DNA of 64,000 bases from Eubacteriales bacterium (GTDB taxonomy: Bacteria; Bacillota; Clostridia; Oscillospirales; QAKW01). The notes beneath the pieces were generated by a model. That model had not been told where the DNA came from and made no database searches. It worked only from the letters and a program-made list of their open reading frames with translations. The stretch spans positions 12,280 through 76,279 of the forward strand of contig JAZTXG010000013.1 of NCBI GenBank assembly GCA_045636365.1, given 5' to 3'. The position numbers and the translations under genes are program-made. Below, one piece after another: positions 11,438 to 64,000 of this stretch (the stretch's first letter is position 1; every line of letters starts with the position of its first letter).

Positions 11438-11569
11438 TGATTCTAAACCTCCGATTTGTTTCAATAATTTTAGCATAGATTGGATGGGATTTCAATATTG
11501 ACAAACAGAAAAACCATTGATATAATGAATCCATATTGTCAATGGCAACGAAGGAGAGGATCCTTCATC

Positions 11570-11795: not shown

Positions 11796-11800
11796 CTAAA

Positions 11801-13084: not shown

Positions 13085-13117
13085 TTTTTATCAAGAAAAT
13101 GAAAGGAGGGAATCCCC

Positions 13118-14035: not shown

Positions 14036-14040
14036 CATAA

Positions 14041-14075
14041 AAAACAGCGGTTTTTGATAAAACCGCTGTTTTTTG
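14041..14075 (+). terminator. Rho-independent terminator after metA
   Basis: Stem aacagcggtt/aaccgctgtt followed by tttttt. Confidence 0.8.
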
Positions 14076-14200
14076 ATAGCTGCATCAAAAGAACGCAAAA
14101 ATTCAAAGAAATTTATGCAAAGAACACAAAAAAATAAAGGAAATTATATTTAATATATTTTATAATAATTATAGAAAATTATAAGATGGGGTGAAATACT

Positions 14201-15964: not shown

Positions 15965-15978
15965 AGGAGAACCAAACG

Positions 15979-19044: not shown

Positions 19045-19052
19045 ACACTCGA

Positions 19053-19083
19053 GCAAGGGGGAGGCTTCCCGCCTCCCCCTTGC
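19053..19083 (+). other. GC-rich stem-loop after the 15979-19044 gene (weak or no U-tract)
   Basis: Stem gcaagggggaggc/gcctcccccttgc with a 5-nt loop. The downstream sequence ccggactatttt is not a clean U-run. Confidence 0.6.
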
Positions 19084-19105
19084 CGGACTATTTTAGGATA
19101 AAACG

Positions 19106-20158: not shown

Positions 20159-20199
20159 GTGAATTTATATAAAAATATTTTTAAAGGAGAACCAATAAA

Positions 20200-23679: not shown

Positions 23680-23696
23680 TACGAAGAATTAAATCA

Positions 23697-23729
23697 ATAA
23701 AATGGAGGCGCAAGCCTCCATTTTATTTT
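23697..23729 (+). terminator. Rho-independent terminator
   Basis: Stem aatggaggc-gcaa-gcctccatt followed by ttattttg. Nearly identical to the one at 27067-27099. Confidence 0.8.
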
Positions 23730-23875
23730 GCAGCAAAACATTTGAATATTTTTTAGGAGCGATGCCACATCGCCCCCAAAAAAATTACGCTACGACTTGA
23801 TTTTGAAAAGAAACTATGGTATCATTAAATTAACTGTAAATATGTAGATAGTTTTTTAAAAGGAGAATCAACAAC

Positions 23876-26800
23876 ATGAAAAGAAGAGCTATTTCTCTTT
23901 TGGCAATTCTTGCGATGCTTTGCACCATGGTTGTCTTCGCGATGCCTACCACCGTGGCGGCTGCGGAGACCTATCCCCAGTATAAGGATCACGTGTCTGC
24001 AATGGCGAACGGTCACGATGGAAAGAACTGGTCCATTTCCGAGCCTGAAGACTGGTTGAAAATGATCGAAACCGCCGGTGCGACGGCAGTAGGTGAGACC
24101 TATTTTGATGGGGTCACCTTCCACTTGACAGGGAATATTAACTTTTATGGTGTGGAAATGCTGCAATTAGGTACTGCTGAAGCAGATACAGATAAAACAG
24201 CCTATCCAAGATATTTTGGCGGTACCATCAACGGTCACGGCTACGGCTTTGATAATATTTTAATCAAAAATGTAGAAAGTACCACGTCCGGCTTGATCAA
24301 TCGGCTGGGTAACTGTTCGTTCATTGATTTCGGCGTTAATAGCGGCGATATCAACCGCAACAGTGGTAACGCAAGCACCAGCGTATCCACCTTTGGTGCG
24401 GTGTCGGCAGGCTGTACGGTGAATTTTACCCGCGTATGGTCCGGCGCAAATATCCGTTCCCTTGCCGATGGGCACGCTTCCGCTCTTGTCGGCGCTCCGG
24501 GAGGAGATGTCGAAGCAACCATCAATGTAAACGGCTTTGTATTTGACGGATTGCTCGCCTCCGATAGAGAAGTATCAACGGATCCCTTGAAAAACGTTTA
24601 TGGCGTTGTCGGAAGCCATTCGAATGAGATCACCGGTGCCCATAGCTACCGGAATATTCTTGTCGATGGCATTGCAAGTAACCCGAAGAAAAAAAGTGGT
24701 CATATCAATGCCGGCGCCAGCGATTATGTGGATCACGCGGAGCCTGCTCCTCTCTTCGGAATGTTCCGATTCGCGGCAAAAAAACCCGCTGTATTTGAAA
24801 ACGTATACGGCATCACCGGCAAACGTGAAGGCTTCCAAAAAGTTTCCATACCCTATTTCATAGGAACAGCAGCCCAGAGCGACGATGCTCTTTTGAAGAC
24901 TGATGCTTTGGAAGCGGCTTGGTTGATTAACAGCGCGCAAACCGGCGAAGGACCGGATGCGGTTTACTATGCTTTGACCGACGAGGGTAAAATTCGCCCC
25001 ATTGCCGAAGGAAAATCCGAGGGCAAGATCGTCGGGATCACGGTAGAAATCGAAGATATCACCAAGATTGTTGGTGTCAAGCCCGGAAGCACAGTCGATT
25101 TGAAAGCAAAGCTTGGCTATACGAGCGATGTTTCCTTTACTCCTGTTGCAGGGGATTGCGAAATCAATGGCACTTCGGTCACTGTCGGCACCGACGATGT
25201 CACTGTGAAGATGACCAATAGATGCGTCCATGATTTTGATTATACAAAAGGCGATAAAAAACATACCGCCATCTGCTCTATATGCAATCATCAGGTGACT
25301 GAGAATTGCAAACTGAGCAACTGCACAATCAATCCTATCAATTGGAATGCATATACCCACACCGGTACTTGCGCGTGTGGCAATGCGTTCTCTGAAGTCT
25401 GCGATTGTGTATATACAAAGACCGAGGGCGGTTATAAGTATGTATGTTCCATCTGCGGCCGTACCGATGATGCTTCTGCGCCGATGGTTGCCGGCGATGC
25501 CAAGGGCAACGGCGGGGTCGACCTGACCGATGCCATTGCGTTGCTGAAAAAGGTAGTAAACGATAACGCTGCCATCAACGAGCGCAACTCCGATGTGGAT
25601 GGGGATAATGATTGCACGGTCCAAGATGTGCGCAAGATCATCCTCTATTTTATGGGGGTTCAAAAGACCGTAGATGAGTTTGACGCTCTCCAGGAGCGGG
25701 TCAATGAAGAAAACTTCTATAACGAAGAAAATATTGGGTTCGGTAACCTGAAGATGGACGGTAGCGATGGTACCAACGAGCGCTATGTCCGCACCAACTA
25801 TATTTCGGTCAGCAAGGGCAATAAGGTCGTCTTTGGTCCCGTCCGTAAGGCGCAGGCAGTTCTGGGTCATTTCTATGATGCCGACGGTAATGCCATTGAG
25901 CTGATCAATGTCAACAACGAAAGACTCGAGACGAAGTTTTCTTTTAAGGCGACAATTCAAGAAAAAGACGTTGAAATTCAGCCGGATGGATCTGTCGTAG
26001 GTGAGCTTGCGGAAAAAGAAGTCGATGGATTGGCAATGGTCAGCATTACCGCTCCCGAAGGCGCTGCGTATGTTCGCCTGCAGGCAAATGCCAAAGAAGA
26101 GGAGCAGTTCTATATCCGCATCAATAATGAGTTCTCCTTGGCGGATTATCAATGTCGGACCGCCGGCGATGCCAATGCTCTTACAAATATTGAGAAAGAT
26201 CAGCAGTTCCTCGTTGTCGGTGACTCTTTGTGTTCCGCCGCTGCAGACCCGACTGATAAAGGTTGGAGAGGCCGTATCGTCAGAGATTATGGTGTTGTTA
26301 CGTCCTACTCTGCCCAGGGTGGTTCGGCACTTTCTACCGTCAGATTTTTAAAAGCGAATGATGACTCAAACCTCGATACAGAAGGTAGTGATGTCAACCC
26401 GCGGCAGTGTATCGTAAACCAGGTCAACGAGTGGCGCGATTCCGGCCGTCCGTTTGAGTATATCCTCCTGGAGGGCGGCGGTAACGATGCTTCGCAGGAT
26501 GCCAAAGTCGGCTATTGGTTGAATGACGATCCTAATACCGGTGTCAAACTGTTCAACCCCACTTCCTATAATCCCAAGGATTTTGCTCCGGAAGATACCT
26601 TTGTAGGCGGCTTGGAGCGGGCGATCTATTCCGCCATCAAGACCTATGGCGACACCGCCGCCATCGGCTTCATGAGCATTTATGATGGTCCCTATTATGG
26701 AACCAAAGGTACGTTTGCCGATATGGGCAACTACTTCCAATATGCCAAGGAAATCTGCGATAAATGGAGTGTTCCCTATCTGGATCTGTTTTCGATCTTG

Positions 26801-27058
26801 ACCGAGGATAAGTTTAATTCCAGACCCATGACGGAAGGAAAAGCGAACTATGATCCTACCGGTCTTACCACAGACGGTATCCACGCCAACGGCGATGGAT
26901 ACGATGTGATGCAAGAGTATATCGGGCCCTTTGTCACAGGAATCGTGCCTGAGGAAATGAAGGCCGAGATTCCGGAGACGATGAGACCGGTAGACCAGGA
27001 AATTTTCCTCGAAATTCAGAAATATGATGATCTCGATAAGGTTATCGGAATGAAATAA
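23876..27058 (+). CDS. Secreted multidomain protein (1060 aa), close paralog of 20200-23679
   Basis: Signal peptide MKRRAISLLAILAMLCTMVVFAMPTT and motif GTINGHGYGF. Dockerin at 25493-25657 (GDAKGNGGVDLTDAIALLK / SDVDGDNDCTVQDVRKI). SGNH blocks VVGDSLCSAA, LLEGGGNDAS and DGIHANGDGY. Confidence 0.8.
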   Translation: MKRRAISLLAILAMLCTMVVFAMPTTVAAAETYPQYKDHVSAMANGHDGKNWSISEPEDWLKMIETAGATAVGETYFDGVTFHLTGNINFYGVEMLQLGTAEADTDKTAYPRYFGGTINGHGYGFDNILIKNVESTTSGLINRLGNCSFIDFGVNSGDINRNSGNASTSVSTFGAVSAGCTVNFTRVWSGANIRSLADGHASALVGAPGGDVEATINVNGFVFDGLLASDREVSTDPLKNVYGVVGSHSNEITGAHSYRNILVDGIASNPKKKSGHINAGASDYVDHAEPAPLFGMFRFAAKKPAVFENVYGITGKREGFQKVSIPYFIGTAAQSDDALLKTDALEAAWLINSAQTGEGPDAVYYALTDEGKIRPIAEGKSEGKIVGITVEIEDITKIVGVKPGSTVDLKAKLGYTSDVSFTPVAGDCEINGTSVTVGTDDVTVKMTNRCVHDFDYTKGDKKHTAICSICNHQVTENCKLSNCTINPINWNAYTHTGTCACGNAFSEVCDCVYTKTEGGYKYVCSICGRTDDASAPMVAGDAKGNGGVDLTDAIALLKKVVNDNAAINERNSDVDGDNDCTVQDVRKIILYFMGVQKTVDEFDALQERVNEENFYNEENIGFGNLKMDGSDGTNERYVRTNYISVSKGNKVVFGPVRKAQAVLGHFYDADGNAIELINVNNERLETKFSFKATIQEKDVEIQPDGSVVGELAEKEVDGLAMVSITAPEGAAYVRLQANAKEEEQFYIRINNEFSLADYQCRTAGDANALTNIEKDQQFLVVGDSLCSAAADPTDKGWRGRIVRDYGVVTSYSAQGGSALSTVRFLKANDDSNLDTEGSDVNPRQCIVNQVNEWRDSGRPFEYILLEGGGNDASQDAKVGYWLNDDPNTGVKLFNPTSYNPKDFAPEDTFVGGLERAIYSAIKTYGDTAAIGFMSIYDGPYYGTKGTFADMGNYFQYAKEICDKWSVPYLDLFSILTEDKFNSRPMTEGKANYDPTGLTTDGIHANGDGYDVMQEYIGPFVTGIVPEEMKAEIPETMRPVDQEIFLEIQKYDDLDKVIGMK

Positions 27059-27066
27059 TTAAACCC

Positions 27067-27099
27067 ATAAAATGGAGGCGTAAGCCTCCATTTTATTTA
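27067..27099 (+). terminator. Rho-independent terminator (duplicate of 23697-23729)
   Basis: Stem aatggaggc-gtaa-gcctccatt followed by ttatttatt. Confidence 0.8.
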
Positions 27100-27173
27100 T
27101 TATAGGGCGATTGATCTTTTGATAAAATTGTGGTATAATTTCTTCAAGTGTATAAATGGAAAGGGAAAGAACA

Positions 27174-28226
27174 ATGAATTATTATTGCAAGGAAACATGT
27201 ATCGGCCAATATCTGAAGATGGACGGTGCCGTTGAAAAAAGCGATCGTTTTCTTTTGACCCAAGCAATTGCGGTAGAGCAGGGCGATCAGATCTTTTTCG
27301 GGCCGGTTCGCCTCGGGCAGCCGGTGATGGGTGCGTTTTATGACGCTCAAGGGCAGTTGATTGAATTGTTTAATCATACAAAGGTGGAGGTTCGCCAACC
27401 CTTTAAGCAGGGAATGGTGATGGCTTGCATTACCGCCCCCGCATCCGCAGCCGCGGTTCGGCTGGAGTTGACCCCTGCGGAAAAGGATGTATTCTGCATC
27501 TATATCAATGAAGAACAGATCCCCGAAGATACCTTTACCAACCCCTTAGACGGAAGAACGGTTCTGAACATCGGCGATTCCCTTTGCGCAGCAAACAACG
27601 ATCCTGAAGTGGATGGGATGCGGGGATGGTCCCGCCGCCTTCACCAAACCTATGGCGCGCAGGTCACCAATTCCGCCATCCCCGGCGCAGCGGTTTCGGA
27701 TATTCGCTTGAAGCAAGGGCATCGTGCAGTCAAGTGCATCCTCAATCAGATGTTGCCGCATACCGATGCGCATTTTGAATATATCTTGCTGGAGGGCGGC
27801 GGCAATGATGGAAGCTATGAGGCACCGCTGGGTGAGATCAGCGAGAGCTTTGACCCTGCCACCTTCGATCTTTCCACCTTTGCAGGCGGTTTGGAATTGA
27901 TGATCTATCAAGCGGTCAAGGACCATGGCGATACTGCTGCGATTGGTTATATGAGCGTGTATAAGATGCCGCTTCATAATACCATGTACAGAACCGGCAA
28001 GTATTTTGAGCTGGGCGGGCAGATCTGCAAAAAATGGGGCATCGAGTATCTGGACCTTTATAATGATCTGGAGTTTGATACCAAAGAATATACCATTCAG
28101 ATGAAGACCGGAGAACCGGATTTTGTCCATGCGGATACTCGAGGCTACGAAATTATGCAACCGCATATCAGCGAATTTATGCTGAAGATCCGTCCGATTC
28201 CCTTTGAGATATATCAGAAGGTTTAA
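27174..28226 (+). CDS. Leaderless minimal paralog: ~110-aa module + SGNH hydrolase
   Basis: Start placed at MNYYCKETCIGQYLKMDG, which aligns with the MNYFKF... start of 19106. An extended -10 (tgtggtataat) lies upstream at about 27131-27141. SGNH blocks NIGDSLCAAN, LLEGGGNDGS and DFVHADTRGY. Confidence 0.75.
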   Translation: MNYYCKETCIGQYLKMDGAVEKSDRFLLTQAIAVEQGDQIFFGPVRLGQPVMGAFYDAQGQLIELFNHTKVEVRQPFKQGMVMACITAPASAAAVRLELTPAEKDVFCIYINEEQIPEDTFTNPLDGRTVLNIGDSLCAANNDPEVDGMRGWSRRLHQTYGAQVTNSAIPGAAVSDIRLKQGHRAVKCILNQMLPHTDAHFEYILLEGGGNDGSYEAPLGEISESFDPATFDLSTFAGGLELMIYQAVKDHGDTAAIGYMSVYKMPLHNTMYRTGKYFELGGQICKKWGIEYLDLYNDLEFDTKEYTIQMKTGEPDFVHADTRGYEIMQPHISEFMLKIRPIPFEIYQKV

Positions 28227-52134: not shown

Positions 52135-53574
52135 ATGAAATCGGAATTTGAACTGAGTTTGTTGAATGATTTTTATGAGTTTACGATGAGTAACGGTTTT
52201 TTCTGCGAAGGAAAAGGGGAACAAATCGTTTATTTTGATGTCTTCTTTCGCAGAATTCCGGATCGCGGCGGATATGCGATCTGCTGCGGTTTGGACCAAG
52301 TGGTTGACTACATTTCGAATCTTTCTTATTCAGATGAAGTTGTCGAATTTTTGAGAGAAAAAGGGATCTTTTCCGAGGGCTTTTTGGAATACTTGCGCAA
52401 TTTTAAGTTTAGCTGCGATGTATATGCGGTTCCCGAAGGGACACCGGTGTTTCCGGGCGAACCGATCCTTGTTGTTCGCGGACCTGCAATTCAGGCGCAA
52501 TTGCTTGAAACGATGATCCTGCTCACATTGAATCATCAAAGCTTGATCGCGACCAAAGCGTCTCGCATTGTTCGCGCTGCCGATGGACGCGGTGTGAGCG
52601 AATTTGGCGCCCGTCGTGCGCATGGAACAGCGGCTTCTGTGATGGGGGCGCGCGCTGCATATATTGCGGGCTGCGCCGGAACATCCAACACGTTGTGTGA
52701 TAAATTGTATGGTGTTCCGAGCAGCGGAACGATGGCACATAGCTGGGTGCAAAGCTTTCCGAGTGAATATGAAGCGTTTGTCGCTTATGCAAGGAATTAT
52801 CCCAATTCTTGTGTACTTTTGATCGATACTTTTAATGTTTTGAAATCAGGATTGCCCAATGCAATTCGTTGCTTTGATGAGGTCCTTAAACCGATGGGCT
52901 GCCGACCAGTGGCGGTTCGGATCGATTCCGGTGATATTACATATTTATCTAAAAAAATTCGTTCTATTTTGGATGAGGCGGGTTATACCGATTGCAAAAT
53001 TATGGTATCCAATTCTTTGGACGAATATATTATTCGCGATTGCTTGAATCAAGGTGCAAAGATCGATCTTTTTGGTGTGGGCGAGAGATTGATTACCTCC
53101 CGCAGTGAGTCGGTTTTTGGTGGTGTTTATAAGATTGTAGCCGTTGAAGAAGCGGATGGGTCAATTACGCCTAAAATCAAGGTTTCCGAGAATATTGAAA
53201 AGATAACAACTCCTTGTTTTAAGCAGGTTTATCGTCTGTTTTCTAATGACACCGGAAAGGCGATAGCGGATCTTATCACATTGCATGATGAGGAAGTCGA
53301 TCAAACAAAGCCGTATACATTGTTTGATCCGGTCCACACATGGAAGAAACAAGTTGTTTCAAATTATAAAGCAGTTCCGCTCCTTGAATTGATTTTCAAA
53401 AAAGGGGAGTTGGTCTATAAAAAACCGACCACAAAAGAAATCAGAGAGTACTCCTTGGGGCAAATGGATCTTTTGTGGGATGAAGTGAAACGTTTTGAAA
53501 ATCCTCATGAATATTATGTTGATTATTCTCAAAAGCTATGGGATATCAAAAATGAACTCTTAAAGAGCAATTAA
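52135..53574 (+). CDS. pncB: Nicotinate phosphoribosyltransferase
   Basis: 479 aa. LLNDFYEFTM..., EFGARRAHG and SGTMAHSW motifs. Confidence 0.9.
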   Translation: MKSEFELSLLNDFYEFTMSNGFFCEGKGEQIVYFDVFFRRIPDRGGYAICCGLDQVVDYISNLSYSDEVVEFLREKGIFSEGFLEYLRNFKFSCDVYAVPEGTPVFPGEPILVVRGPAIQAQLLETMILLTLNHQSLIATKASRIVRAADGRGVSEFGARRAHGTAASVMGARAAYIAGCAGTSNTLCDKLYGVPSSGTMAHSWVQSFPSEYEAFVAYARNYPNSCVLLIDTFNVLKSGLPNAIRCFDEVLKPMGCRPVAVRIDSGDITYLSKKIRSILDEAGYTDCKIMVSNSLDEYIIRDCLNQGAKIDLFGVGERLITSRSESVFGGVYKIVAVEEADGSITPKIKVSENIEKITTPCFKQVYRLFSNDTGKAIADLITLHDEEVDQTKPYTLFDPVHTWKKQVVSNYKAVPLLELIFKKGELVYKKPTTKEIREYSLGQMDLLWDEVKRFENPHEYYVDYSQKLWDIKNELLKSN

Positions 53575-53882
53575 TCGGGGTATACAAAATAAACAAAATT
53601 GCAGGTGCTAAAATTTTAGTACCTGCAATTTTGTTTATATTGCACAAATCATTATGTAAACTGATATTAAAAACAAGGTTTTTGGCCTCATTTTTAACAA
53701 TTTATTTGTAAATTTTTCAAAATTTTATTGAAATTATATATATAATGTGCTATAATTGCCACGTTAGTATGAGAAAAAATGTCTATAAATTCTTCGTTCA
53801 ATTTTCTTAATGCCTTTTTGTGTATTTTGTCAAAACGAAAAAATCATTTTTCAGTACTGATAATCTTTGTTGGAGGTAGATT

Positions 53883-56800
53883 ATGAAAAACAACAAAAAG
53901 ATGAATTCTTTTTGGCGCTCCCTTCTTGCTATGGCGCTTGTTTTGTCGATGATGGCGACAATGTCGGTTGTTGCGTTTGCAGACGATGAAGAGCCGGAAG
54001 CGACCGATGTTATGGCAGAAGTCGAAGGCGCTGAAACAGAAGAAAAGGTTGAGGACACGGAGCCTTTCGTTCCTGCTGAGACGGTGAATGCCGGTGGAGC
54101 AGAGAATGCAGGCGAAGTATCTGTGGTAGGCTTCTATCGTGACGGCCGCTATGTGGACTATTATTCCAAGTATGCGGATCAAATTGCCGCGATGCCTGAA
54201 ATCAAAGTTCCTGCTGAGTCGTTCACAGGGGTGACCGCTCCCAGTGTGGTTCAACCGGTATTTGAAGGCCGCGATCAGGTGTTGGTGATGTCCGATATCG
54301 GATCCATCACCTATAAGATTACCGTTGCCAAGACCGGTATGTACGCAATGCAGCTTGATTATTTCCAGCTGTTGGGCGATGGCAACGGCAAGGATTATGA
54401 ACTTGCTGTTTATGTCGACGGTAAACTTCCTCATAACGACGCGAGCCGTTTTTCTTTAAAGAGAAACTGGAAAGATGAAGATGAGGAACGCAAGAAGGAT
54501 TCCGGCGGCAATGAGCTGTATTCCAAGCAGATTGAAGATCCCAAGTGGTTGAGCAACTCTTTGCGCGATCCCGATGGTGTGTTTGATGATCCTGCTATGT
54601 TCTATTTAACCGCAGGGGAACACGAAATCAAGATCGCTTTCAATCAAGGTATTCTGGCTCTTGATGGTATTCGTTTCTATAATGACGGTGATGCGATCTC
54701 TTATGCGGATTATATCGCTCAAAATGATGCGAACGGTGCTGTAGATGCCGATACTCATTTCGATCTGGAAACAGAGAATTATGATGATAAGAGTGAATCT
54801 TTGGTTCAGCCTGATTTCGATCGCAGCGACCCGAAGGTGACTCCGTACAGCATCAGCAAGACCACGCTGAATGTTTTGGGCGGCGAAAACTGGAACGGGA
54901 ACGGCCAGCGCGTAAACTGGACGATCAATGTTCCTAAGGATGGTTACTATACCATCGGTGTTCGTTATCGTCAGTCTTATGTTGAGGATACTGTTACATA
55001 TCGCAAGCTTTATATTGATGATAAGGTTCCTTTTGCGGAAGCCGAGACGATCGGATTCCCTTATGGCATCGGCTATCAATATAATATGATTGGCGGAGTT
55101 GATGAAAACGGAAATGATGTTTCCTATAAGTTCTATCTGACTGCCGGTGAACACAAGTTCTCTTTGGAAGGCGTTATTGGTCCGATGGAAGAGGTTACTC
55201 GTATCTCTGAAGATCTTGTTTACCAATTAAACTATATCTATCGTAAGATTATCATCGTAACCGGTCAGAGCCCTGATGTCAATCGCGACTATGAACTGGA
55301 TAGGAAGATCACCGGTTTGATGGATATGTTTGACTCTGTTTATGACGATTTGCTCGGCATTGAAGAAAAGGTCATCAAAATCAACGGTAACCTTGGTTCT
55401 GCTCAGATCATCACTACTTTGAAAAAGCAGTTGAGCGATTTAATTAAAGCTCCCTATGCAATTCCCGAGCAATTATCTACCTTCAAAGATAATATCAGTA
55501 CTTTGAGTACATGGATGTTGGCATTGCGCGATCAGCCGTTGCAGATCGATAAAATGGTTTTCGCGGGCGAAGATGTCGCAGTTCCTTCTCAAACAGCTAA
55601 TTTCTGGGAAAGCACTGCTCATGAGATTCGTGCATTCTGGTCTTCCTTCGTTGATGACTATACAACGGTTGGTTCTGCTGATGAAAATGAACGTTCCCTG
55701 AAGGTTTGGGTTGGTACCGGCCGCGACCAGGCAACTGTGTTGAAGACCCTTTGTGATAACTATTTCACTCCGCAGACAGGGATTTCTGTCAATGTCGGCT
55801 TGGTTCCGCTTTCCATCTTGTCTAAGGCGATCGTTGCGGGCCGTTGCCCCGATATTGCATTGCACGTTTCCCGTGCCGAGCCGATGAACCTTGGTGTTCG
55901 TAATGCGATTTACGATCTTACTCAATTTGAAGATTATGATGAGATCGTTGAGCGCTTCTCTTCTTATGCGATGACTCCCTATACCTTGAGCACTACAGAT
56001 AAGGATGGGAAGATGATCAAAAAGGTATTTGCGCTTCCCGAATCTCAAAACTTTAATATGATGTACTATCGTAAAGATATTTTTGCTGAGTTGGGTATTT
56101 CTGCTCCGAATACCTGGAGTGATTTTGATAACATCCTTCCCTTTATTCAAGCAAACAATATGACGGTTGGTATGGATTCATCGATTTCGAACAGCTCGTT
56201 CTATGTCTTTATTTTGCAAACAGGAAACACTCCCTTTGCAGAGACCGGCGAAAAAACCAACTTTACCGAGCAGTATGCAATCGACGCATTTGAAAAATGG
56301 ACCAGATATTATCTGCAGTATGATTTGCCGACAGACTATAACTGGTACACCTATTTCAGAAACGGTCAAATGCCGCTGGTTATTCAACCTTATTCTCAGA
56401 TCACCTATCTGCAGGAGTCTGCTCCTGAATTGAACGGTCTGTGGGACGTTGCTCCGATTCCCGGAACATTGGATCCCGAAACCGGAATTGTAAATCGTTC
56501 CGAAGAGTCCGGCTCTCTTTCGGCTTGCATGATTGTTGATAAAGCGATTCGTGTCTCTAAGGATCCCGAACAAAAGACGAAGGATGCGTGGGAATTTTTG
56601 AAATGGTGGACTTCTACCGATATTTCTGCTGAATACGGCAACCGTATTGAAATGGCGATCGGTTCGGTAGCGAGATTTACCACTTCCAATATTGAAGCAT
56701 TTGAAAAGATCAGATGGTCTTCTGATGAAGCAACTGCGATTCGTTCTCAGCGTGAGTGGGTACGCGAATTGCCCGAACTTGTTGGTGGCTATTATGTCGG

Positions 56801-56951
56801 ACGTAACGTTGTTAATGCTTTCCGTAATGTTACTAACAATGGTTCCAACCCGCGCGAGAAACTATTCTATTATAATGAAGAAATTAATGGAGAGATCTGG
56901 CGGAAACGTATGGAATATGATCTTTCTGTACCGGAGGAGGCGAGAAAATAA
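53883..56951 (+). CDS. Giant extracellular solute-binding protein (1022 aa): signal peptide, two beta-sandwich CBM-like modules, helical linker, family-1-type SBP domain
   Basis: Signal MKNNKKMNSFWRSLLAMALVLSMMATMSVVAFA. Two repeated modules each end in (F)YLTAGEH(E/K)(I/F).... The C-terminal half (SLKVWVGTGRDQATVLKTLCDNYF...) resembles sugar-type SBPs. Confidence 0.7.
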   Translation: MKNNKKMNSFWRSLLAMALVLSMMATMSVVAFADDEEPEATDVMAEVEGAETEEKVEDTEPFVPAETVNAGGAENAGEVSVVGFYRDGRYVDYYSKYADQIAAMPEIKVPAESFTGVTAPSVVQPVFEGRDQVLVMSDIGSITYKITVAKTGMYAMQLDYFQLLGDGNGKDYELAVYVDGKLPHNDASRFSLKRNWKDEDEERKKDSGGNELYSKQIEDPKWLSNSLRDPDGVFDDPAMFYLTAGEHEIKIAFNQGILALDGIRFYNDGDAISYADYIAQNDANGAVDADTHFDLETENYDDKSESLVQPDFDRSDPKVTPYSISKTTLNVLGGENWNGNGQRVNWTINVPKDGYYTIGVRYRQSYVEDTVTYRKLYIDDKVPFAEAETIGFPYGIGYQYNMIGGVDENGNDVSYKFYLTAGEHKFSLEGVIGPMEEVTRISEDLVYQLNYIYRKIIIVTGQSPDVNRDYELDRKITGLMDMFDSVYDDLLGIEEKVIKINGNLGSAQIITTLKKQLSDLIKAPYAIPEQLSTFKDNISTLSTWMLALRDQPLQIDKMVFAGEDVAVPSQTANFWESTAHEIRAFWSSFVDDYTTVGSADENERSLKVWVGTGRDQATVLKTLCDNYFTPQTGISVNVGLVPLSILSKAIVAGRCPDIALHVSRAEPMNLGVRNAIYDLTQFEDYDEIVERFSSYAMTPYTLSTTDKDGKMIKKVFALPESQNFNMMYYRKDIFAELGISAPNTWSDFDNILPFIQANNMTVGMDSSISNSSFYVFILQTGNTPFAETGEKTNFTEQYAIDAFEKWTRYYLQYDLPTDYNWYTYFRNGQMPLVIQPYSQITYLQESAPELNGLWDVAPIPGTLDPETGIVNRSEESGSLSACMIVDKAIRVSKDPEQKTKDAWEFLKWWTSTDISAEYGNRIEMAIGSVARFTTSNIEAFEKIRWSSDEATAIRSQREWVRELPELVGGYYVGRNVVNAFRNVTNNGSNPREKLFYYNEEINGEIWRKRMEYDLSVPEEARK

Positions 56952-57907
56952 TGGCAGCAAAACAACGTGAAATTGAATTACTGAAAAAGAAAAAACTCAC
57001 CTTCTCTGAGAAAATGGCGCTCACATGGCGGCAGGTCTGGGAAAATAGAATCAACTATGTTTTAATGTTCCCGTTTTTGCTGTTCTTTACATTATTTACA
57101 GTTATTCCGGTTGGCGCGTCAATGGTTCTTTCGTTCACACGTTATGACGTTTTGAACGATCCGGTATTTGTCGGTTGGGATAACTACCTTAGAATGTTCT
57201 TGGAAGATGGCATTTTCTTGATTGCATTGAAGAACACTTTGCAATTCGCTATCATTACCGGACCGGTCGGATATATTCTGTGCTTCGTGTTTGCATGGTT
57301 TATTAACGATCTTCCTCCGTATGCGAGAGCATTCTTTACCGTCGTTTTCTATGCGCCTACTTTGGCAAATGTTTACTTTATCTTCCAATATATATTTAGT
57401 GCGGATATGTATGGTCTGATCAACTCGGTTTTAATGAACCTGGGTCTCTTGGATCAGCCGATTGCATGGTTGACCAATCCGGACTATATGTTGAATATTG
57501 TTATCATTGTCCAATTGTGGTGTTCTCTCGGTACCGGCTTCCTTTCGTTTGTTGCCGGTCTGCAGAACTTGGATCCTTCGCTTGCCGAAGCCGGTGCGAT
57601 CGATGGCGTTCGCAATCGTTTCCAAGAACTGTTTTATATCACATTGCCCCAGATGGGCGGTATGTTGATGTTCGGTGCGGTTATGCAGATCGCTTCCGCT
57701 TTTGCGGTTGGCGGAATTTCTTCTGCAATGTTGGGTAACCCCTCTGTCGACTATGCAGGTCATACTTTGGTCTTGCATATTGCCGACTTTGGTAACACCC
57801 GTTTCGAACTTGGTTATGCATCTGCGATTGCGGTGGTCTTGTTCTTACTGATGATCTTGACAAAGGCTGCAATCAATAAGTTGCTTGCCAAATTCTCACA
57901 TGATTAA
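56951..57907 (+). CDS. Sugar-type ABC transporter permease (MalF-like)
   Basis: 318 aa, 6 TM, EAA loop LAEAGAIDGVRNRFQELFYITLP. ATG overlaps the upstream stop (TAATG). Confidence 0.85.
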   Translation: MAAKQREIELLKKKKLTFSEKMALTWRQVWENRINYVLMFPFLLFFTLFTVIPVGASMVLSFTRYDVLNDPVFVGWDNYLRMFLEDGIFLIALKNTLQFAIITGPVGYILCFVFAWFINDLPPYARAFFTVVFYAPTLANVYFIFQYIFSADMYGLINSVLMNLGLLDQPIAWLTNPDYMLNIVIIVQLWCSLGTGFLSFVAGLQNLDPSLAEAGAIDGVRNRFQELFYITLPQMGGMLMFGAVMQIASAFAVGGISSAMLGNPSVDYAGHTLVLHIADFGNTRFELGYASAIAVVLFLLMILTKAAINKLLAKFSHD

Positions 57908-57927
57908 GGAAAGGAGAGTGAACAATA

Positions 57928-58785
57928 ATGTCTACTAAATTAAGAAGAACCAAAGCCTCTGTTGTTGGCGATATTTCTACCTATGTTTTGCTCGCTCTTT
58001 ACGCTTCCTTTATGTGCCTGCCTTTGCTTTATGCGATTGTGCAGTCCATTAAGCCGTATAACGAACTGTTTATTTTCCCGCCGCGGTTTTTCACAAAGAA
58101 CCCCACGTTGATGAGCTTCAGAAAGTTGTTTGATCTGACTTCTGCTTCTTGGGTTCCTTTTTCCAGATATGTTTTTAACTCGGTTGCCAACACCGTTGTC
58201 GGTACAGTGATTCATATCTTTTCTGCGGCAATGTGTTCTTATCCCTTGGCTAAGAATAAATTCCCCGGAAAGAAGATCATTTTCCAGATCGTTGTTTGGT
58301 CGCTGCTCTTTACCGGCGGTGTTACCGAAATCCCGACATATTTGGTTATGTCTAAATTGAATATCATCGATACTTATTTCGCATTCTGGCTTCCTGAGAT
58401 CAGCGCAACGATGGGTGTCTTCCTGCTGAAGCAAAATATGGCGGAAGTTCCCGATGCAATGGTTGAAGCGGCGCGAATCGATGGGGCAGGGGAATGGAAA
58501 ATTTTGTGGTCTATTATGATGCCTTCGGTAAAACCTGCGTGGTTGACGCTTGCGATCTTCTCTTTCCAGAGAAACTGGAATGCAACCGCGGCTTCCTACA
58601 TTTATACCGAAACATTGAAGACCTTGCCTACTGCGTTGAGTCAGATCACTGCCGAAGGCGGTGTGGCTCGTGCCGGCGAGGCGTATGCAGCATCGGTTTT
58701 GATGATGATCCCGCCGATTATCTTCTTTATCTTTGCGCAGAGCAGTACAGTAAAAACGATGGCACATGCCGGTATTAAGGGTTAA
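57928..58785 (+). CDS. Carbohydrate ABC transporter permease (MalG-like)
   Basis: 285 aa, EAA loop MVEAARIDGAGEWKILWSIMMP. Confidence 0.85.
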   Translation: MSTKLRRTKASVVGDISTYVLLALYASFMCLPLLYAIVQSIKPYNELFIFPPRFFTKNPTLMSFRKLFDLTSASWVPFSRYVFNSVANTVVGTVIHIFSAAMCSYPLAKNKFPGKKIIFQIVVWSLLFTGGVTEIPTYLVMSKLNIIDTYFAFWLPEISATMGVFLLKQNMAEVPDAMVEAARIDGAGEWKILWSIMMPSVKPAWLTLAIFSFQRNWNATAASYIYTETLKTLPTALSQITAEGGVARAGEAYAASVLMMIPPIIFFIFAQSSTVKTMAHAGIKG

Positions 58786-58798
58786 GGAGGTGTGCGAT

Positions 58799-60355
58799 AT
58801 GAGTAAAAAAATGATTAAAATCGGTGCAGCTCTAATGACTGTAATTATGCTTGTGTCGATGTTCACCTTCTCTTCTTCGGCATACATTGCATACAACACT
58901 TATGATTTTAATTTCTACGGTGATGCGATGGCCACCCCCTCTACTTATGCTCCGGAGAAAATTTATTATGGATCCGACATGGGTGTTGGATCTTTCGATA
59001 ACGCAGTGGATCTTTATGTAAGTCCGCAAAATGAAGTGTATGTTTTGGATTATTTTGGAACCGAAAATGAAGCAAGACTTCATATTTTCAATTCCGAGCT
59101 CAAACATATTAAAACCCTTTCTACTCTGAAAGCGAACGGCAAAGATTATACGATGCGTTTGCCGGAGAGTGTTGCGGTTGACCAATATGGTTACATTTAT
59201 ATTTGCGATACCGGCAATAAGCAGGTACTTAAACTTGATAAAGATAAGAGCGGTACGATCGTTCAAACCTTCAGCACTCCGAAAACCGAACTCTTTTCCG
59301 GTGAGTTTAAGCCTTCCAAAGTTGCGATTGCGAAAAATATGTCTCTTTATGTAATTTCTACCGGTACCTTGGATGGTATTATGGAATTTAATAAAGATGG
59401 TGTATTCCTTCGTTATTTCGGTGCTCCCGATGTCGCGCTTACATTGATGGATATGGTAACAATGGCTTGGCGTCGCGTTTATCGGTCCATCATTGGTCAG
59501 CAGGCAAGCAATTTTTTCGTCACTTTTGTTCCTACCGAATTTGTTAATATGGTTGTAGACGATTACGGCTTTGTTTATGCTGTTGTTGCGTCGACCGGTG
59601 GTAACGATAATACGAATCAGCTCAAGAAAATGAACTTCTTGGGCAATAGTGTTTTGGATCCCAATGCTAAGAGTACTCAGAAAATATCAGCTACACTTTC
59701 GGAAACGTACGGTGACCTTGTTCGAAGCGATACACTTGGTAAGAACATTTTCAAAGATGTTGCTGTTGATTCCGATGGGTTCATCACAATGATGGACACA
59801 AACCTTGGTAAAATCTTCGAGTATGACGCTGAAGGAAATATGACAGCAATTTACGGAACCAAGGGCACGCAATTAGGCTTGCTCCAAAAGCCGGCTGCTA
59901 TTGCAAAGCTTGGCAAAAAGACACTGGTTCTCGATAATTATTTTGGCTCGATCACAGTGTTTGATCTGACCGATTATGGAAAGACACTTCATAACGGTAT
60001 CAATCTGTACGACCAAGGTCTTTATGAAGAAGCGGAAGGCTATTGGCAAAAAATTCTGAAGAATAATGCCAACTGCGAATTGGCTCACATCGGTATTGGT
60101 AAGGTTTATTATCAATATGGCCGTTATAAAGACGCATTGGATCACTTTGAGATTGCAAACGATCGAATGAACTATGAAAGTGCATTTGCTTTGTACAGAG
60201 AATCTTTGATCGCAGATCATTTTGATCTGTTGATGACGTCACTGGTCATTTTGATTGTTTTGCTAGTCGTTTGGAAGTTTTTCGGCAAAGCAATCATTAA
60301 AGCTATTAAAGAAAAGAAGCAAGGAGGTGGAGATGATGACACAGATCTTGAATAA
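58799..60355 (+). CDS. Bitopic membrane protein with NHL/beta-propeller-like repeats and a TPR segment
   Basis: ATG after AAGGAGG. N-terminal TM/signal. NHL-like repeats (YGYIYICDTGNKQVLKLD; DGFITMMDTNLGKIFEYD; LVLDNYFGSITVFD). TPR-like EEAEGYWQKILKNNANCELAHIGIGKVYYQYGRYKDAL. C-terminal TM and an acidic tail. Confidence 0.65.
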   Translation: MSKKMIKIGAALMTVIMLVSMFTFSSSAYIAYNTYDFNFYGDAMATPSTYAPEKIYYGSDMGVGSFDNAVDLYVSPQNEVYVLDYFGTENEARLHIFNSELKHIKTLSTLKANGKDYTMRLPESVAVDQYGYIYICDTGNKQVLKLDKDKSGTIVQTFSTPKTELFSGEFKPSKVAIAKNMSLYVISTGTLDGIMEFNKDGVFLRYFGAPDVALTLMDMVTMAWRRVYRSIIGQQASNFFVTFVPTEFVNMVVDDYGFVYAVVASTGGNDNTNQLKKMNFLGNSVLDPNAKSTQKISATLSETYGDLVRSDTLGKNIFKDVAVDSDGFITMMDTNLGKIFEYDAEGNMTAIYGTKGTQLGLLQKPAAIAKLGKKTLVLDNYFGSITVFDLTDYGKTLHNGINLYDQGLYEEAEGYWQKILKNNANCELAHIGIGKVYYQYGRYKDALDHFEIANDRMNYESAFALYRESLIADHFDLLMTSLVILIVLLVVWKFFGKAIIKAIKEKKQGGGDDDTDLE

Positions 60356-61001
60356 TTTAAAGCGCATTTCGAATCGGTTATTCGAGGGCAAAAAGAATCC
60401 TTTTTTGATGCTGTTCCATCCGGGTGAAACCATGGAAGATCTCAAGTATAAGAAAAATGGATCCACATTTTATGCAACATTGCTTTTGATTGCATATAGC
60501 GTATCTGCGATCATCGTTGAAGTTGCCACCGGCTTTATGTACTCCACAATGCGTATTCAGGATTTTAACATCGTCACCGTTCTTTGCACTTCCGGTGCGC
60601 TGGTATTGCTCTTTGTTGTTGGCAACTGGGCATTGTGCACTTTGTTTAGCGGCGAAGGGCGAATGAAAGATGTTTATATCATGACTTGTTATAATCTGAT
60701 TCCGTTGATCTTGTATAACATTTTCGGAACGATTATGTCGCAGTTTATGATTCCTGATGAATATGTGTTTGTCACCATTATCGGAACCTGCTGCTCGCTG
60801 TGGTTTATTTGTCTGATGGTGTATGGCGCTATGGTTATCCATAACTATTCTTTTTGGGGAACTGTCTTGAATTTGATAATGTCTTTGGTAGCTATGGCAA
60901 TTATCTTCTTCTTGATCTTCTTGTTTGTCGTCTTGATGCAGCAACTTTATGTATTCGTTATGACTCTGTATACAGAGTTTCGGATGCGTTTGTATATTTA
61001 A
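60333..61001 (+). CDS. Yip1-domain-like polytopic membrane protein
   Basis: About 222 aa with 5 TM. AAGGAGG at 60321-60327. Overlaps the upstream gene by about 20 nt. Confidence 0.6.
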   Translation: MMTQILNNLKRISNRLFEGKKNPFLMLFHPGETMEDLKYKKNGSTFYATLLLIAYSVSAIIVEVATGFMYSTMRIQDFNIVTVLCTSGALVLLFVVGNWALCTLFSGEGRMKDVYIMTCYNLIPLILYNIFGTIMSQFMIPDEYVFVTIIGTCCSLWFICLMVYGAMVIHNYSFWGTVLNLIMSLVAMAIIFFLIFLFVVLMQQLYVFVMTLYTEFRMRLYI

Positions 61002-61020
61002 GAAAGGAGAAATGAATTAA

Positions 61021-63249
61021 ATGAAGAGAACTATTAGCTTTATTTTATCATTCGTTTTGCTCCTTTCCTGCATTTCGATGATTACATTTGCCACCTCTGC
61101 AGCACCTGCAAAGTTAGAGGTTCCGGGCAACTATGTTTTGGCAGATCAAAATTCCAATATTGCTCTCTATGTTGATAGCAATACCGGAGATTTTGCCATT
61201 ATGAATCAAAAGAGCAAAGCGGTTTGGTATTCTAATCCTGTGGATTGGAAGTCGGATAAAATTGCTCAAGGAGATTCTTATACCGATCTGACATCTAAAA
61301 TGACAGTTCAGTATATTACCAGCAGTTATGCTGAGGGTTCTGTCAACTCCAATCAAGCCGCTGTTATCAGCGAACGTGTGGGGAAAGATTGGATCATTAC
61401 ATTCTATTTTAAAAATGCAAATACCAACTTTTCGATCCCTGTAAAATTGTCCCTGAAAGAGGAATATGTTCATGTTGAGCTGATGATCGACCAGATTGAA
61501 GAAAAAGGCGATACTCGTATTCTCTTTGTGAACTTGTATCCCTATTTCGGAGCCGCCGGTTTGAATGATACCGGTTATGGTTTCGTTCCTGATGGAACCG
61601 GCTCTTTGATGGAGTTTAATCGTGAGCTGCTCAATAACTACCCCTTTGGTAATGATAATGAAGGCTTAATGTATGCTCCGAATCCTACCGAAGTTGCAAC
61701 AAACAGCTATTTCCAAAACTGGAATGAAGCTCTTCGCTTGCCGGTTTACGGTATGGTGAAGAATAATGAAGCTTTTCTTGCTATCATTGAAAGCGGTGCA
61801 GCTGTTACCGAAATCCAAGCAAGTTTGAGCCGGTTGTGGAATAGCTATAACGTTGTGAAGACTTGTGTCAACATTCGCGACGCTCAAGCCCGTAGGACCG
61901 CTACCGGTGATAAGGGTGCGGGCTCCTATTATTCTGAGATCCGCCCCGAAAACTATATTGTTCGGTATTATCCGCTGGATGGTGAGAATGCTTCTTATAT
62001 CGGAATGGCCGAAAGATACCGTGAGTATTTGATCGAAGAAAAGGGAATGACTCCTGTGAAGGATGTTGCTTCCAATGCGCTCAACATCTCTCTTTACGGT
62101 GCGGTCAAAAAACAAAAGCATTTCTTGGGAATTCCTTATACCGGAGCGGAATATTTGACCACTTATTCTGAAGCAGAAGAGCTGGTTGATCGCTTGGTAG
62201 CCGATAAAGTTGATAAAGTATTTATTGATTATTCCGGCTGGACTTCCGGTGGCTTGGATACGACAACGGAACTCACCTTGAAACCCAGCTCTAAGCTTGG
62301 CGGCAAAAAGGCAATCAACAGTTTGATTGATAAGGTAAACGAGATTGATAACTACTCATTGGCTTTCGATTTGGAATTGCATGAGTTCCATAGCCAAACC
62401 AGAGATATCAAGAAGTTTAAGGACGTCTCTCACGGGTTGGATGCTTCTCCGGTAGCCATCTGGAGAGGAAGAATTTCCGCTGCAGGAGCAACAACGAAAT
62501 CAAATATGGGCTATATGTTAATTCATCCTGCTCGTATGCTTGGTTATGCTGATAAGTTTATCAACAGTGCATCTTCGAATGATGTCAAGAGTTATTCCTT
62601 TAATTCTCTGGGCGATTCTCTTTATTGCGCTTATAATATTAATGATGATTCCACGCGCGATAAATCCGAGCATCATATGGAAGATATCTTCAATCGTGCT
62701 CAAGAAGCCACAGATGAAAATGGTATTCTCAACACAACCGGTGGTAACGGCTATGCCGTTCCGTATGTGGATAACATTATGAATGCACCGGTTTATGCAA
62801 GCCATAATATTTTGCTTGCTAAGGAAGTTCCGTTCTATCAAATCGTTTTCCGTGGATATGTTAATCTGGCCGGCAATCCGTTCAACCTGGAGTCTGAGCA
62901 GGATGATTTGCTCTTGAAATTGGCGGAAACCGGTATGAGCTTGTATTATCAGTTGATTGATGCGGAATCTACAGCATTCCATAATACAGATTATACCCAT
63001 TTGTACGCTTGTGCGGTAGACGATCATTATGACGATATGATTGCGACTTATAATCGTATGAAACCGCTTTACGATGCGGTTGCTGATAGCACTATCGTTA
63101 ATTATGAAGTGATTTCTGATGATGTAAAAATCACAACCTTCAGCAATGGAGCCAAGGTTTATGTAAACTATTCGGATGCTGAAGTGAATGTTAATGGTGT
63201 TAAGGTCGCAGCAAAAGACTTTACAGTAGTAGGAGGTGTAGCAGCATGA
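61021..63249 (+). CDS. Secreted 742-aa protein of unknown family (possibly DUF5696-type, from memory)
   Basis: Signal peptide MKRTISFILSFVLLLSCISMITFATSAA. No catalytic motif could be assigned by eye. Confidence 0.6.
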   Translation: MKRTISFILSFVLLLSCISMITFATSAAPAKLEVPGNYVLADQNSNIALYVDSNTGDFAIMNQKSKAVWYSNPVDWKSDKIAQGDSYTDLTSKMTVQYITSSYAEGSVNSNQAAVISERVGKDWIITFYFKNANTNFSIPVKLSLKEEYVHVELMIDQIEEKGDTRILFVNLYPYFGAAGLNDTGYGFVPDGTGSLMEFNRELLNNYPFGNDNEGLMYAPNPTEVATNSYFQNWNEALRLPVYGMVKNNEAFLAIIESGAAVTEIQASLSRLWNSYNVVKTCVNIRDAQARRTATGDKGAGSYYSEIRPENYIVRYYPLDGENASYIGMAERYREYLIEEKGMTPVKDVASNALNISLYGAVKKQKHFLGIPYTGAEYLTTYSEAEELVDRLVADKVDKVFIDYSGWTSGGLDTTTELTLKPSSKLGGKKAINSLIDKVNEIDNYSLAFDLELHEFHSQTRDIKKFKDVSHGLDASPVAIWRGRISAAGATTKSNMGYMLIHPARMLGYADKFINSASSNDVKSYSFNSLGDSLYCAYNINDDSTRDKSEHHMEDIFNRAQEATDENGILNTTGGNGYAVPYVDNIMNAPVYASHNILLAKEVPFYQIVFRGYVNLAGNPFNLESEQDDLLLKLAETGMSLYYQLIDAESTAFHNTDYTHLYACAVDDHYDDMIATYNRMKPLYDAVADSTIVNYEVISDDVKITTFSNGAKVYVNYSDAEVNVNGVKVAAKDFTVVGGVAA

Positions 63250-64000
63250 GCAAAAATGAATTGAACAATGATGCATTAGAAATTCAAGCGAATGTTGATG
63301 ACATCTCTGAAATCGAATCCGCTGCTACTTTTGCGCAATGGAACCCTGAGGAGAATAAGCAGATTGCAACAAAGTTGATTGAGAAAAATCCCGAACGTGC
63401 AAAAGAAATCGTTCGTGAGCGTCTTGCTAAGATGACTCCGGAGCAGATTGAAGCTTTGCGCGTAGCAAAGGCTGCAAAAGAAGAGGCAATGAAGGCTGCA
63501 ACCGAAGCTGCGGAAGAAGAAAAGAAAGTAGAAGAATCGGTGGAAGAAGCAACTGTAGAACCTGCGGAAGAAACTCCGGTTGTCGCTGAGATGCCTGAGG
63601 TTCAGGAGGAGGTTGTACCGGTTGCTGCTGAGATACCCGAGGTTCAGGAAGAGGTTGTTCCCGTTGTCGCTCCTGTTGTTGCGGCACCGAAAAAAGAAGG
63701 AAAGAAAAAGGCAAGTAAGGGTCGCGGCATTTCTTATGAATCCCGTCAGGCGTTTACAGGCTTTATGTTCGTTCTTCCTTGGTTCATCGGATTTTTGCTG
63801 TTCTTTGCAATTCCTTGCTTCCAGTCCCTCCAGTTTTCCTTCTCCAAGGTTGCTGTTTTTGATGGTTATGCATGCTCTTGGATCGGTCTGGAGAACTATG
63901 TCACTCTTCTGACCAGTGGTGCAACATATTTACAAGCTTTGACAAAAACGTTGACCGATTTGGCAGTTAATGTTCCGGTCATCTTGATCTTCAGCTTGTT
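63246..64000 (+). CDS. ABC transporter permease (MalF-like) with ~165-aa acidic N-terminal extension; partial, runs off the window
   Basis: Own translation from an ATG that overlaps the upstream stop (ATGA): MSKNELNNDALEIQ...EMPEVQEEVVPVAAEIPEVQEEVVPV...GRGISYESRQAFTGFMFVLPWFIGFLLFFAIP. Not in the ORF track because it has no in-window stop. Confidence 0.7.
   Translation, partial: MSKNELNNDALEIQANVDDISEIESAATFAQWNPEENKQIATKLIEKNPERAKEIVRERLAKMTPEQIEALRVAKAAKEEAMKAATEAAEEEKKVEESVEEATVEPAEETPVVAEMPEVQEEVVPVAAEIPEVQEEVVPVVAPVVAAPKKEGKKKASKGRGISYESRQAFTGFMFVLPWFIGFLLFFAIPCFQSLQFSFSKVAVFDGYACSWIGLENYVTLLTSGATYLQALTKTLTDLAVNVPVILIFSL

Follow-up and report, generated by a model that had tools for sequence, protein, structure and literature searches.

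A conserved eight-gene cassette of Bacillota, a candidate accessory-equipped dual CUT1-type ABC glycan importer with a DUF5696 protein

The ATP-binding cassette (ABC) importers of the carbohydrate uptake transporter 1 (CUT1) type found in Firmicutes commonly share an unlinked ATPase, MsmX in Bacillus subtilis and MsmK in streptococci, as exemplified by the AraNPQ, MdxEFG and GanSPQ systems of B. subtilis, which work with MsmX, and by the streptococcal systems that work with MsmK. As a rule, permeases with a BPD_transp_1 domain that are paired with solute-binding proteins (SBPs) are importers. In Bacteroidota, the Sus-like utilisome brings together SusC/D, surface glycan-binding proteins and a surface glycosidase. 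Among glycosidases, NagBb, of glycoside hydrolase (GH) family GH129, is an alpha-N-acetylgalactosaminidase, and the GH129-like DagB of Zobellia is a 3,6-anhydro-D-galactosidase. In B. subtilis, the Yip1-family protein YknW is needed by the four-component ABC pump YknWXYZ and modulates the assembly of YknXYZ (PMC4887032). In this work we analysed an operon at the end of a stretch of 64,000 nucleotides from an Eubacteriales bacterium (GenBank assembly GCA_045636365.1, contig JAZTXG010000013.1, positions 12,280 to 76,279), hereafter the window, whose predicted products share features with all of these systems. As judged from sequence, this region constitutes the first seven genes of an eight-gene cassette conserved in Bacillota. 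We propose, with a probability of roughly 0.55, that the cassette encodes an accessory-equipped dual CUT1-type ABC glycan importer, which in the clade of the window includes a non-catalytic DUF5696 protein.

Seven same-strand open reading frames (ORFs), tightly coupled, run from position 53883 to the end of the window (Table 1). They encode a giant SBP, two permeases (P1 and P2), a protein with NHL and TPR domains, a Yip1 protein, a DUF5696 protein and a third permease (P3). A TAATG overlap joins the giant SBP and P1 genes at 56951, the NHL and Yip1 genes share 20-29 nt, and an ATGA overlap at 63246 places the start of P3 across the DUF5696 stop codon, in agreement with the seven coupled genes and overlaps reported in a preliminary description of this DNA. 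Homologues of 87% and 63% identity located on long contigs have the same upstream gene for nicotinate phosphoribosyltransferase (NAPRTase) and the same seven genes, and then carry a full-length P3 (417-455 aa) and, directly after it, a fourth permease, P4, which is MalG-like and 332-334 aa long in these two (332-336 aa among the relatives). Beyond P4 the operon ends in these relatives, and genes for a P-type ATPase, a SpoU methylase and EF-G come next. Therefore, the operon has eight genes, the eighth lying outside the window.

Relatives were sought in one genome per GTDB species using a 10-sequence DUF5696 alignment as query, which yielded at least 595. The best 80 of these, together with eight loci reached via homologues, gave 88 loci for comparison, in which ORFs were called and the eight proteins recognised with iterated hidden Markov models; gene order was counted in the 62 non-duplicate loci with enough flank. 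The order giant SBP, P1, P2, NHL(-Yip1), DUF5696, P3, P4 on one strand was found in 62 of 62, the only departures being ORF-calling artefacts and one frameshifted draft. It is kept in both Clostridia and Bacilli, even where DUF5696 identity falls to about 25%, and the loci of homologues with 44%, 38%, 30% (Paenibacillus spongiae) and 27% identity (a Clostridiales metagenome-assembled genome, MAG) show exactly this order. The MAG carriers belong to Eubacteriales, Oscillospiraceae, Acutalibacteraceae, Ruminococcaceae and Lachnospiraceae, and the cultured ones to Paenibacillus, Cohnella, Gracilibacillus, Halalkalibacter, Lederbergia and Thermobacillus. The preliminary description had seen here a non-canonical operon whose two permease sets are separated by three envelope proteins, and had mentioned an association of Yip1 and DUF5696 genes with ABC permeases in some Firmicutes, with no function assigned. 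Both statements hold for all 62 loci, and no paper on DUF5696, PF18952 or the cassette was found in the literature searched, a search largely outside subscription journals. A conserved accessory architecture of this kind on an ABC glycan importer is therefore undescribed in that literature. The same description had proposed neighbourhood conservation as a check on the chance juxtaposition of two sugar ABC loci with unrelated envelope genes. The neighbourhood analysis refutes this explanation, since the extra genes are kept with the transporter in one invariant order across two Bacillota classes, 27 loci carry NHL-Yip1 fusions and two junctions have overlaps; we give it next to no probability.

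When compared to the CUT1 importers with a shared ATPase, the cassette shows the same MalF/UgpA and MalG/UgpE permeases with EAA loops, the same cluster-D SBP fold, the SBP-permease-permease gene order and an operon devoid of an ATPase gene. In contrast to those importers, it has two permease heterodimers in one operon, an SBP of about 1000 aa with modules resembling carbohydrate-binding module (CBM) families 35 and 6, a helical bundle and no lipid anchor, and the NHL, Yip1 and DUF5696 proteins between the permease pairs in every locus. All four permeases are of CUT1 type with six transmembrane (TM) helices and EAA-type loops, the elements by which such subunits couple to an ATPase, P3 being judged from a full-length orthologue and P4 from relatives. 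Pfam BPD_transp_1 was detected in P1 and P2, and the visible 251 aa of P3 gave no Pfam match; the full-length P3 orthologue (locus L009) has 457 aa, six TM helices and an EAA-type loop, and is UgpA-like. The EAA-type loop reads AEAGAIDG in P1 and EAARIDGAG in P2. In NCBIfam, P1 and P3 came closest to UgpA/MalF and P2 and P4 to UgpE/MalG, through partial matches that in each case stayed under the equivalog cut-off. The cassette is thus predicted to encode two complete permease heterodimers, P1-P2 and P3-P4, and the two membrane subunits that define CUT1 (TC 3.A.1.1) occur twice over. A recent tandem duplication of one transporter was rejected because P1 and P3, like P2 and P4, are only about 25% identical, which indicates that the pairs diverged long ago and that the duplication is old. 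An exporter or secretion role was set aside on the rule that permeases of this type with SBPs import. P3 opens with an acidic cytoplasmic extension of about 165 aa (63246-63740), rich in Ala, Glu, Pro and Val and with an internal repeat (PEVQEEVVPV, twice), which is followed by a MalF-type first TM helix; the extension varies in length within the window clade, where P3 as a whole has 339-498 aa, whereas in distant clades P3 has about 300 aa and no extension. Here the window clade comprises the DUF5696 proteins of at least 39% identity, about 95 sequences. As to the ATPase, the preliminary description had remarked that none was in view, which remains true for the 64 kb of the window, where neither a Walker A nor an LSGGQ motif is present anywhere, although this absence is in itself not unusual, being common among CUT1 importers. 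No MsmX-sized ATPase was found within 10 kb in any of the 88 loci, and an ABC-ATPase-like ORF of any kind lies within that distance in two of them.

The giant SBP departs from ordinary sugar-binding proteins in its N-terminal half. Pfam SBP_bac_8 is confined to residues 646-918 (E 6e-15). The AlphaFold2 (AF2) model (pLDDT 85) starts with a signal helix and a disordered acidic linker (28-88), continues with two beta-sandwiches (104-267 and 292-431) and a bundle of four long helices (433-549), and ends with the SBP fold (553-1022). Its C-terminal 430 residues gave target-normalised Foldseek TM-scores of 0.64-0.81 with oligosaccharide SBPs, including the binders of sophoro-oligosaccharide, cycloalternan and cycloisomaltooligosaccharide as well as MalE, CbpB and MnBP, and the protein falls among the cluster-D-type sugar SBPs of CUT1 importers. 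A profile of the N-terminal half matched the CBM35 of cycloisomalto-oligosaccharide glucanotransferase (E 4e-9) and, less strongly, further CBM35 and CBM6 modules. The giant SBP is accordingly modelled as two CBM35/6-like sandwiches joined through a helical bundle to an oligosaccharide-type SBP. The signal of the window protein ends in AFA, directly before DD, and has no lipobox; a lipobox was absent from all of the roughly 60 homologues inspected, which mostly end in an Ala-X-Ala signal-peptidase site or resemble signal anchors.

Between the permease pairs, the fourth gene encodes a protein with Pfam NHL and TPR domains and profile matches to PknD-sensor-like NHL and consensus TPR. It is bitopic, with an N-terminal signal or TM helix at residues 6-24 and a C-terminal TM helix at 477-495, and its start most likely lies at 58799, matching the calls in relatives. 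The next protein belongs to the Yip1 family, matching PF04893 with 57.2 bits against a cut-off of 28.6 over profile positions 3-172 of 173, and TM prediction gave five hydrophobic segments after residue 50. Of the 62 loci, 27 encode NHL and Yip1 in a single ORF of 685-717 aa and 33 in separate ORFs. Collinear with the split pair, the fused proteins begin with an N-terminal TM helix, which precedes an external propeller, a further TM helix and the five Yip1 helices. Like YknW, the Yip1 protein of the cassette is a polytopic member of its family encoded with an ABC transporter in Firmicutes. YknWXYZ, however, is a MacB/FtsX-type exporter with a membrane-fusion protein that protects against the SDP toxin, whereas the cassette has type I importer permeases and a Yip1 protein coupled or fused to an NHL propeller; no membrane-fusion protein, FtsX/MacB domain or ATPase was found in it, which separates it from exporters of the YknWXYZ type. 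Because YknW modulates the assembly of an ABC pump, we hypothesize that the NHL-Yip1 unit would be a scaffold in the membrane, keeping extracytoplasmic partners at both translocons.

A simpler explanation would be a co-regulated bundle with no supercomplex, in which two independent CUT1 importers, a surface glycosidase and a propeller serve the same substrate. Distant cassettes stand in loci with regulators, ordinary SBPs and GH genes, as in a typical glycan-utilisation locus, and physical contacts are shown by nothing in the analysis. Nevertheless, 62 of 62 loci share one internal order, in contrast to the variable surroundings of the eight genes; the stop codon of the SBP gene overlaps the start of P1, and that of DUF5696 the start of P3; the giant SBP is devoid of an anchor of its own; and fusion joins the propeller to a membrane domain whose family includes a known modulator of ABC transporter assembly. 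Taken together, the order, the overlaps, the unanchored SBP and the fusion suggest a coupling tighter than co-regulation, and we regard a bundle of independent parts as possible but rather unlikely.

The preliminary description listed the DUF5696 product as a 742-aa secreted protein; it is not an anonymous protein, since it has a GH129/GH101/GH31-like fold and is probably lipid-anchored. It matches Pfam PF18952 (E 4e-150; 501.8 bits against a cut-off of 25.6) over profile positions 16-612 of 612, and its AF2 model (pLDDT 89, pTM 0.90) consists of an N-terminal beta-sandwich, a (beta/alpha)8 TIM barrel and a C-terminal beta-sandwich. In Foldseek, the full-length model matched DagB (5opq, 8rzk; E 2e-32) and NagBb (5wzn; E 4e-27) over about 750 aligned columns, with target-normalised TM-scores of 0.67-0.71 and identities of 13-15%, followed by GH101 (about 1e-19) and GH31/GH36 (about 1e-13). 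Matches of the DUF5696 profile to GH129 chains were partial (E 5e-9 to 2e-5), covering the N-terminal domain and the first barrel half, and a profile of the second barrel half gave no GH129 match in the PDB. The three-domain fold of GH129 is therefore present, but sequence membership in GH129 across the catalytic domain is not, and both the sequence and the model place DUF5696 as a predicted family related to GH129 but separate from it. Like NagBb and DagB, DUF5696 keeps the three-domain architecture over its full length. Unlike them, it is extracytoplasmic, membrane-tethered, always inside an ABC cassette and in a separate Pfam family, and the window protein has Ala at the two conserved Asp of its family. 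The anchor in the window would be a lipid attached at a PROSITE-type lipobox (LLSC17); in other clades a lipobox or an N-terminal signal anchor is found. The family is large, with 4,104 clusters at 50% identity (E 1e-30 or better), no enzymatic activity is known for any of its members, and NCBIfam has no model for DUF5696, the giant SBP or the Yip1 protein. An exact look-up found no identical copy of the window DUF5696 protein on record.

Conserved residues were analysed in alignment columns of 193 family members and then of 147 further representatives. Two Asp residues stand out: D537, in the motif LYSD[FY], is Asp in 90% of the 147 representatives, and D600 in 93%. They are located in loops after barrel strands, 63 residues apart, a spacing that we take to resemble that between nucleophile and acid/base in GH31/GH36. 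In the window clade, position 537 is Ala, rarely Thr, in every member, and position 600 is non-Asp throughout, with no conserved residue of any kind; the window protein itself has A537 and A600. In much of the clade, the window included, H611 is also replaced by Arg. As R546, N576, Y578, Q607 and E636 are well conserved in the clade, as is the rest of the protein, it appears to be a maintained protein in which the ancestral active-site chemistry has probably been lost. In the window clade, DUF5696 is thus probably non-catalytic, acting as a glycan-binding or structural partner that is translationally coupled to P3-P4. Alternatively, it might still be active, with a new specificity, through other residues such as D450, D584 or E602 or through a substrate-assisted mechanism. 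The window clade conserves Asp at 450 and 584, D537 is not proven as the nucleophile, and catalytic residues can change within this fold, given that DagB and NagBb differ in the acid/base residue; DagB requires D486 (equivalent to NagBb D435) with E517, E531 and D202 (PMC5698469). On the other side, both of the most conserved barrel Asp are replaced, mostly by non-polar or uncharged residues, in about 95 members, H611 is changed to Arg as well, and the only invariant alternative acids are D450 and D584, which are variable elsewhere in the family. Retained catalysis therefore seems doubtful to us, and loss of the ancestral chemistry is preferred.

The surroundings of the cassette differ between the window clade and its distant relatives. 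A census of 93 flanking ORFs in about 30 distant loci gave 17 ordinary SBPs, seven LacI-type and four AraC regulators, six DUF4838 proteins, three GH38, three GH78 and two GH2, and the cassette of P. spongiae is also flanked by GH4, GH2 and GH26. DUF4838 is another uncharacterised family recurring beside distant cassettes and may belong to the same pathways. SBP adjacency was scored in 61 loci, 46 distant ones and 15 of the window clade. Of the former, 37 have an ordinary SBP of 430-500 aa encoded next to the cassette, on its strand and no more than about 320 bp away, preceding the giant SBP in some and following P4 in others; of the latter, none does. The window-clade loci are surrounded by housekeeping genes (NAPRTase, P-type ATPase, SpoU methylase, EF-G), and neither a regulator nor a recognised glycoside hydrolase was found nearby. 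Gram-positive polysaccharide utilisation loci are recognised by a co-located regulator and carbohydrate-active enzyme, a combination present at the distant cassettes but not at the window-clade loci. From these comparisons, the window clade appears to be a derived form that lost the ordinary SBP and both DUF5696 Asp and gained the acidic tail of P3. The varied flanks, with enzymes for mannan, rhamnosides and alpha-mannosides, suggest that the cassette is a generic platform re-used for different glycans. Two divergent whole cassettes occur per genome in Paenibacillus cisolokensis (L039/L069), Paenibacillus sp. IITD108 (L030/L087), one Ruminococcaceae MAG (L037/L038) and the L068/L082 case, which suggests diversification by substrate.

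Therefore, we hypothesize that the parts of the dual importer could work together as follows. The NHL-Yip1 scaffold would retain the unanchored giant SBP and position DUF5696; the CBM modules of the giant SBP would capture a polymeric or large glycan, which DUF5696 would trim or hand over; and the products would enter via P1-P2 and P3-P4, driven by an unlinked shared ATPase of the MsmX/MsmK type. In most of the distant clades, two SBPs, the giant and the ordinary one, would match the two permease pairs. In the window clade, DUF5696 is the sole extracytoplasmic protein translationally coupled to P3-P4 and may be the binding partner there. The most demanding form of this proposal holds that the eight proteins make up one machine, an equivalent in Gram-positives of the Bacteroidota utilisome, with NHL-Yip1 bridging the two translocons and docking both the giant SBP and the GH129-like lipoprotein, and with non-catalytic DUF5696 of the window clade feeding P3-P4 in place of the lost SBP. 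Although we consider it quite unlikely, it would, if true, mean that a pseudo-glycosidase, and not a protein of the periplasmic-binding-protein fold, serves an ABC importer.

Several points weigh against the proposed accessory-equipped importer. That its parts form one complex is something we infer, as conserved order and one fusion show functional linkage and not physical assembly with the permeases. The MsmX/MsmK-type ATPase that would energise the cassette was not observed and is assumed by analogy, and a nutritional role in the window clade is likewise assumed, since the cassette stands there among housekeeping genes. For DUF5696, D537 and D600 could not be aligned residue by residue to DagB D486 or NagBb D435, and a search for GH129-like sequences with a 134-aa DagB fragment as query gave no match; we infer that they are a catalytic pair from their conservation, their post-strand position and the spacing mentioned above, and some of the distant loci have Thr, Ser or Lys in place of D600.

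The start of the operon is delimited in line with the preliminary description, in which a promoter and an upstream terminator defined it. The terminator of the upstream NAPRTase gene folds into a hairpin of -32.6 kcal/mol (z = -10.1), followed by TTTTGTTT, and its stem shows compensatory changes among eight relatives; a rule-based terminator scan passed over this hairpin owing to its stem and loop definitions, and folding confirmed it. The promoter scores 11/12, the best match within 53400-64000, and both its -35 and -10 hexamers are invariant in the eight relatives. Between the two elements lies the motif TGCACAAATCATTATGTAAACT, mostly invariant in eight loci whose DUF5696 is 56-93% identical to that of the window, whereas the flanking spacer varies; it is a candidate binding site for a regulator, either an operator or an activator site. 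An Rfam scan of the leader returned no family, only chance hairpin matches on the terminator. These observations bear on another possible role in the window clade, a non-nutritional one in the envelope, in which the constitutively expressed system would recycle or sense the own or a host surface glycan. Such a role would fit the synteny with housekeeping genes, the near-consensus promoter, the absence of an adjacent regulator or GH and of any cre-like site in the promoter region, and the resemblance of the NHL ectodomain to the PknD sensor propeller. However, none of the eight proteins has a signalling output domain in Pfam or NCBIfam, the distant cassettes stand in catabolic loci, and the conserved upstream motif may be an operator, so that constitutive expression is not established. 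We therefore consider an envelope role very unlikely and retain glycan import as the preferred function.

Table 1. Predicted features of the cassette region, in positions of the window.
Feature	Position	Strand	Description
Terminator (intrinsic) of upstream NAPRTase gene	53585..53642	+	marks operon 5' boundary
Conserved motif TGCACAAATCATTATGTAAACT	53641..53662	+	between terminator and -35 hexamer
Sigma-70-type promoter TTGAAA-17 nt-TATAAT, extended -10 TG	53728..53756	+	
Giant SBP gene	53883..56951	+	1022 aa; Pfam SBP_bac_8, AF2 model, profiles
P1 permease gene	56951..57907	+	318 aa; Pfam BPD_transp_1, TM prediction, NCBIfam
P2 permease gene	57928..58785	+	285 aa; Pfam BPD_transp_1, TM prediction, NCBIfam
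NHL/TPR gene	58799..60355	+	518 aa; Pfam NHL and TPR; first ATG of ORF 58766
Yip1 gene	60327..61001	+	224 aa; Pfam Yip1, TM prediction
DUF5696 gene	61021..63249	+	742 aa; Pfam DUF5696, AF2 model, Foldseek
P3 permease gene	63246..64000	+	incomplete, runs off window; translation, full-length orthologue

By analogy only, the cassette also recalls the utilisome of Bacteroidota, as it joins a transporter, a CBM-bearing binder and a surface lipoprotein with a glycosidase fold, and is re-used beside GH38, GH78 and GH26/GH2 sets, twice in some genomes. Unlike the utilisome, it has no outer membrane, TonB-dependent transporter or SusD fold and would rely on ABC import. If the proposed importer is correct, the cassette would be a glycan-uptake module that recurs and can be re-used among Firmicutes of gut and soil, and a large family with no assigned function, DUF5696, gains a testable context, as a glycosidase fold built into a dual ABC importer. 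Among the carriers, Paenibacillus, Cohnella and Gracilibacillus are cultivable, and genetics is feasible there. The window clade, apparently a natural variant that lost the Asp residues, can be compared with the Asp-bearing clades. The questions raised are why two translocons are needed, what role a Yip1-propeller scaffold plays in an importer and whether a non-SBP fold can feed a type I importer.

Some loci carry additional genes inside or next to the cassette. In a subset of Ruminococcaceae and Oscillospiraceae, one to four genes for bitopic surface proteins lie between P3 and P4 (L037:13185-19241, L042:13205-17020, L048:13314-15825, L060:13404-16576, and also L067 and L085). Their products start with a signal peptide and end in a C-terminal TM anchor, and the ectodomain between the two measures about 300 or about 800 aa; up to three are tandem paralogues, there is one weak LPXTG match, and none has a Pfam domain. 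Directly downstream of P4, window-clade relatives of 44-87% identity have a gene of 54-55 aa on the opposite strand (L001:14692-14856(-), L002:14560-14724(-), L003:14431-14598(-)), with no Pfam match; its counterpart is expected just outside the window. In L035 (the draft genome of Bacillus sp. JCM 19034), at about 5859-14300, P1, NHL, P3 and P4 are each split in two ORFs, and the locus represents either a decaying cassette or sequencing frameshifts. Elsewhere in the window, six consecutive ORFs on the plus strand at 14201-28226 (587, 1021, 350, 1159, 1060 and 356 aa) each end in a C-terminal SGNH/GDSL hydrolase domain and constitute an array of paralogous, mostly very large putative esterases.

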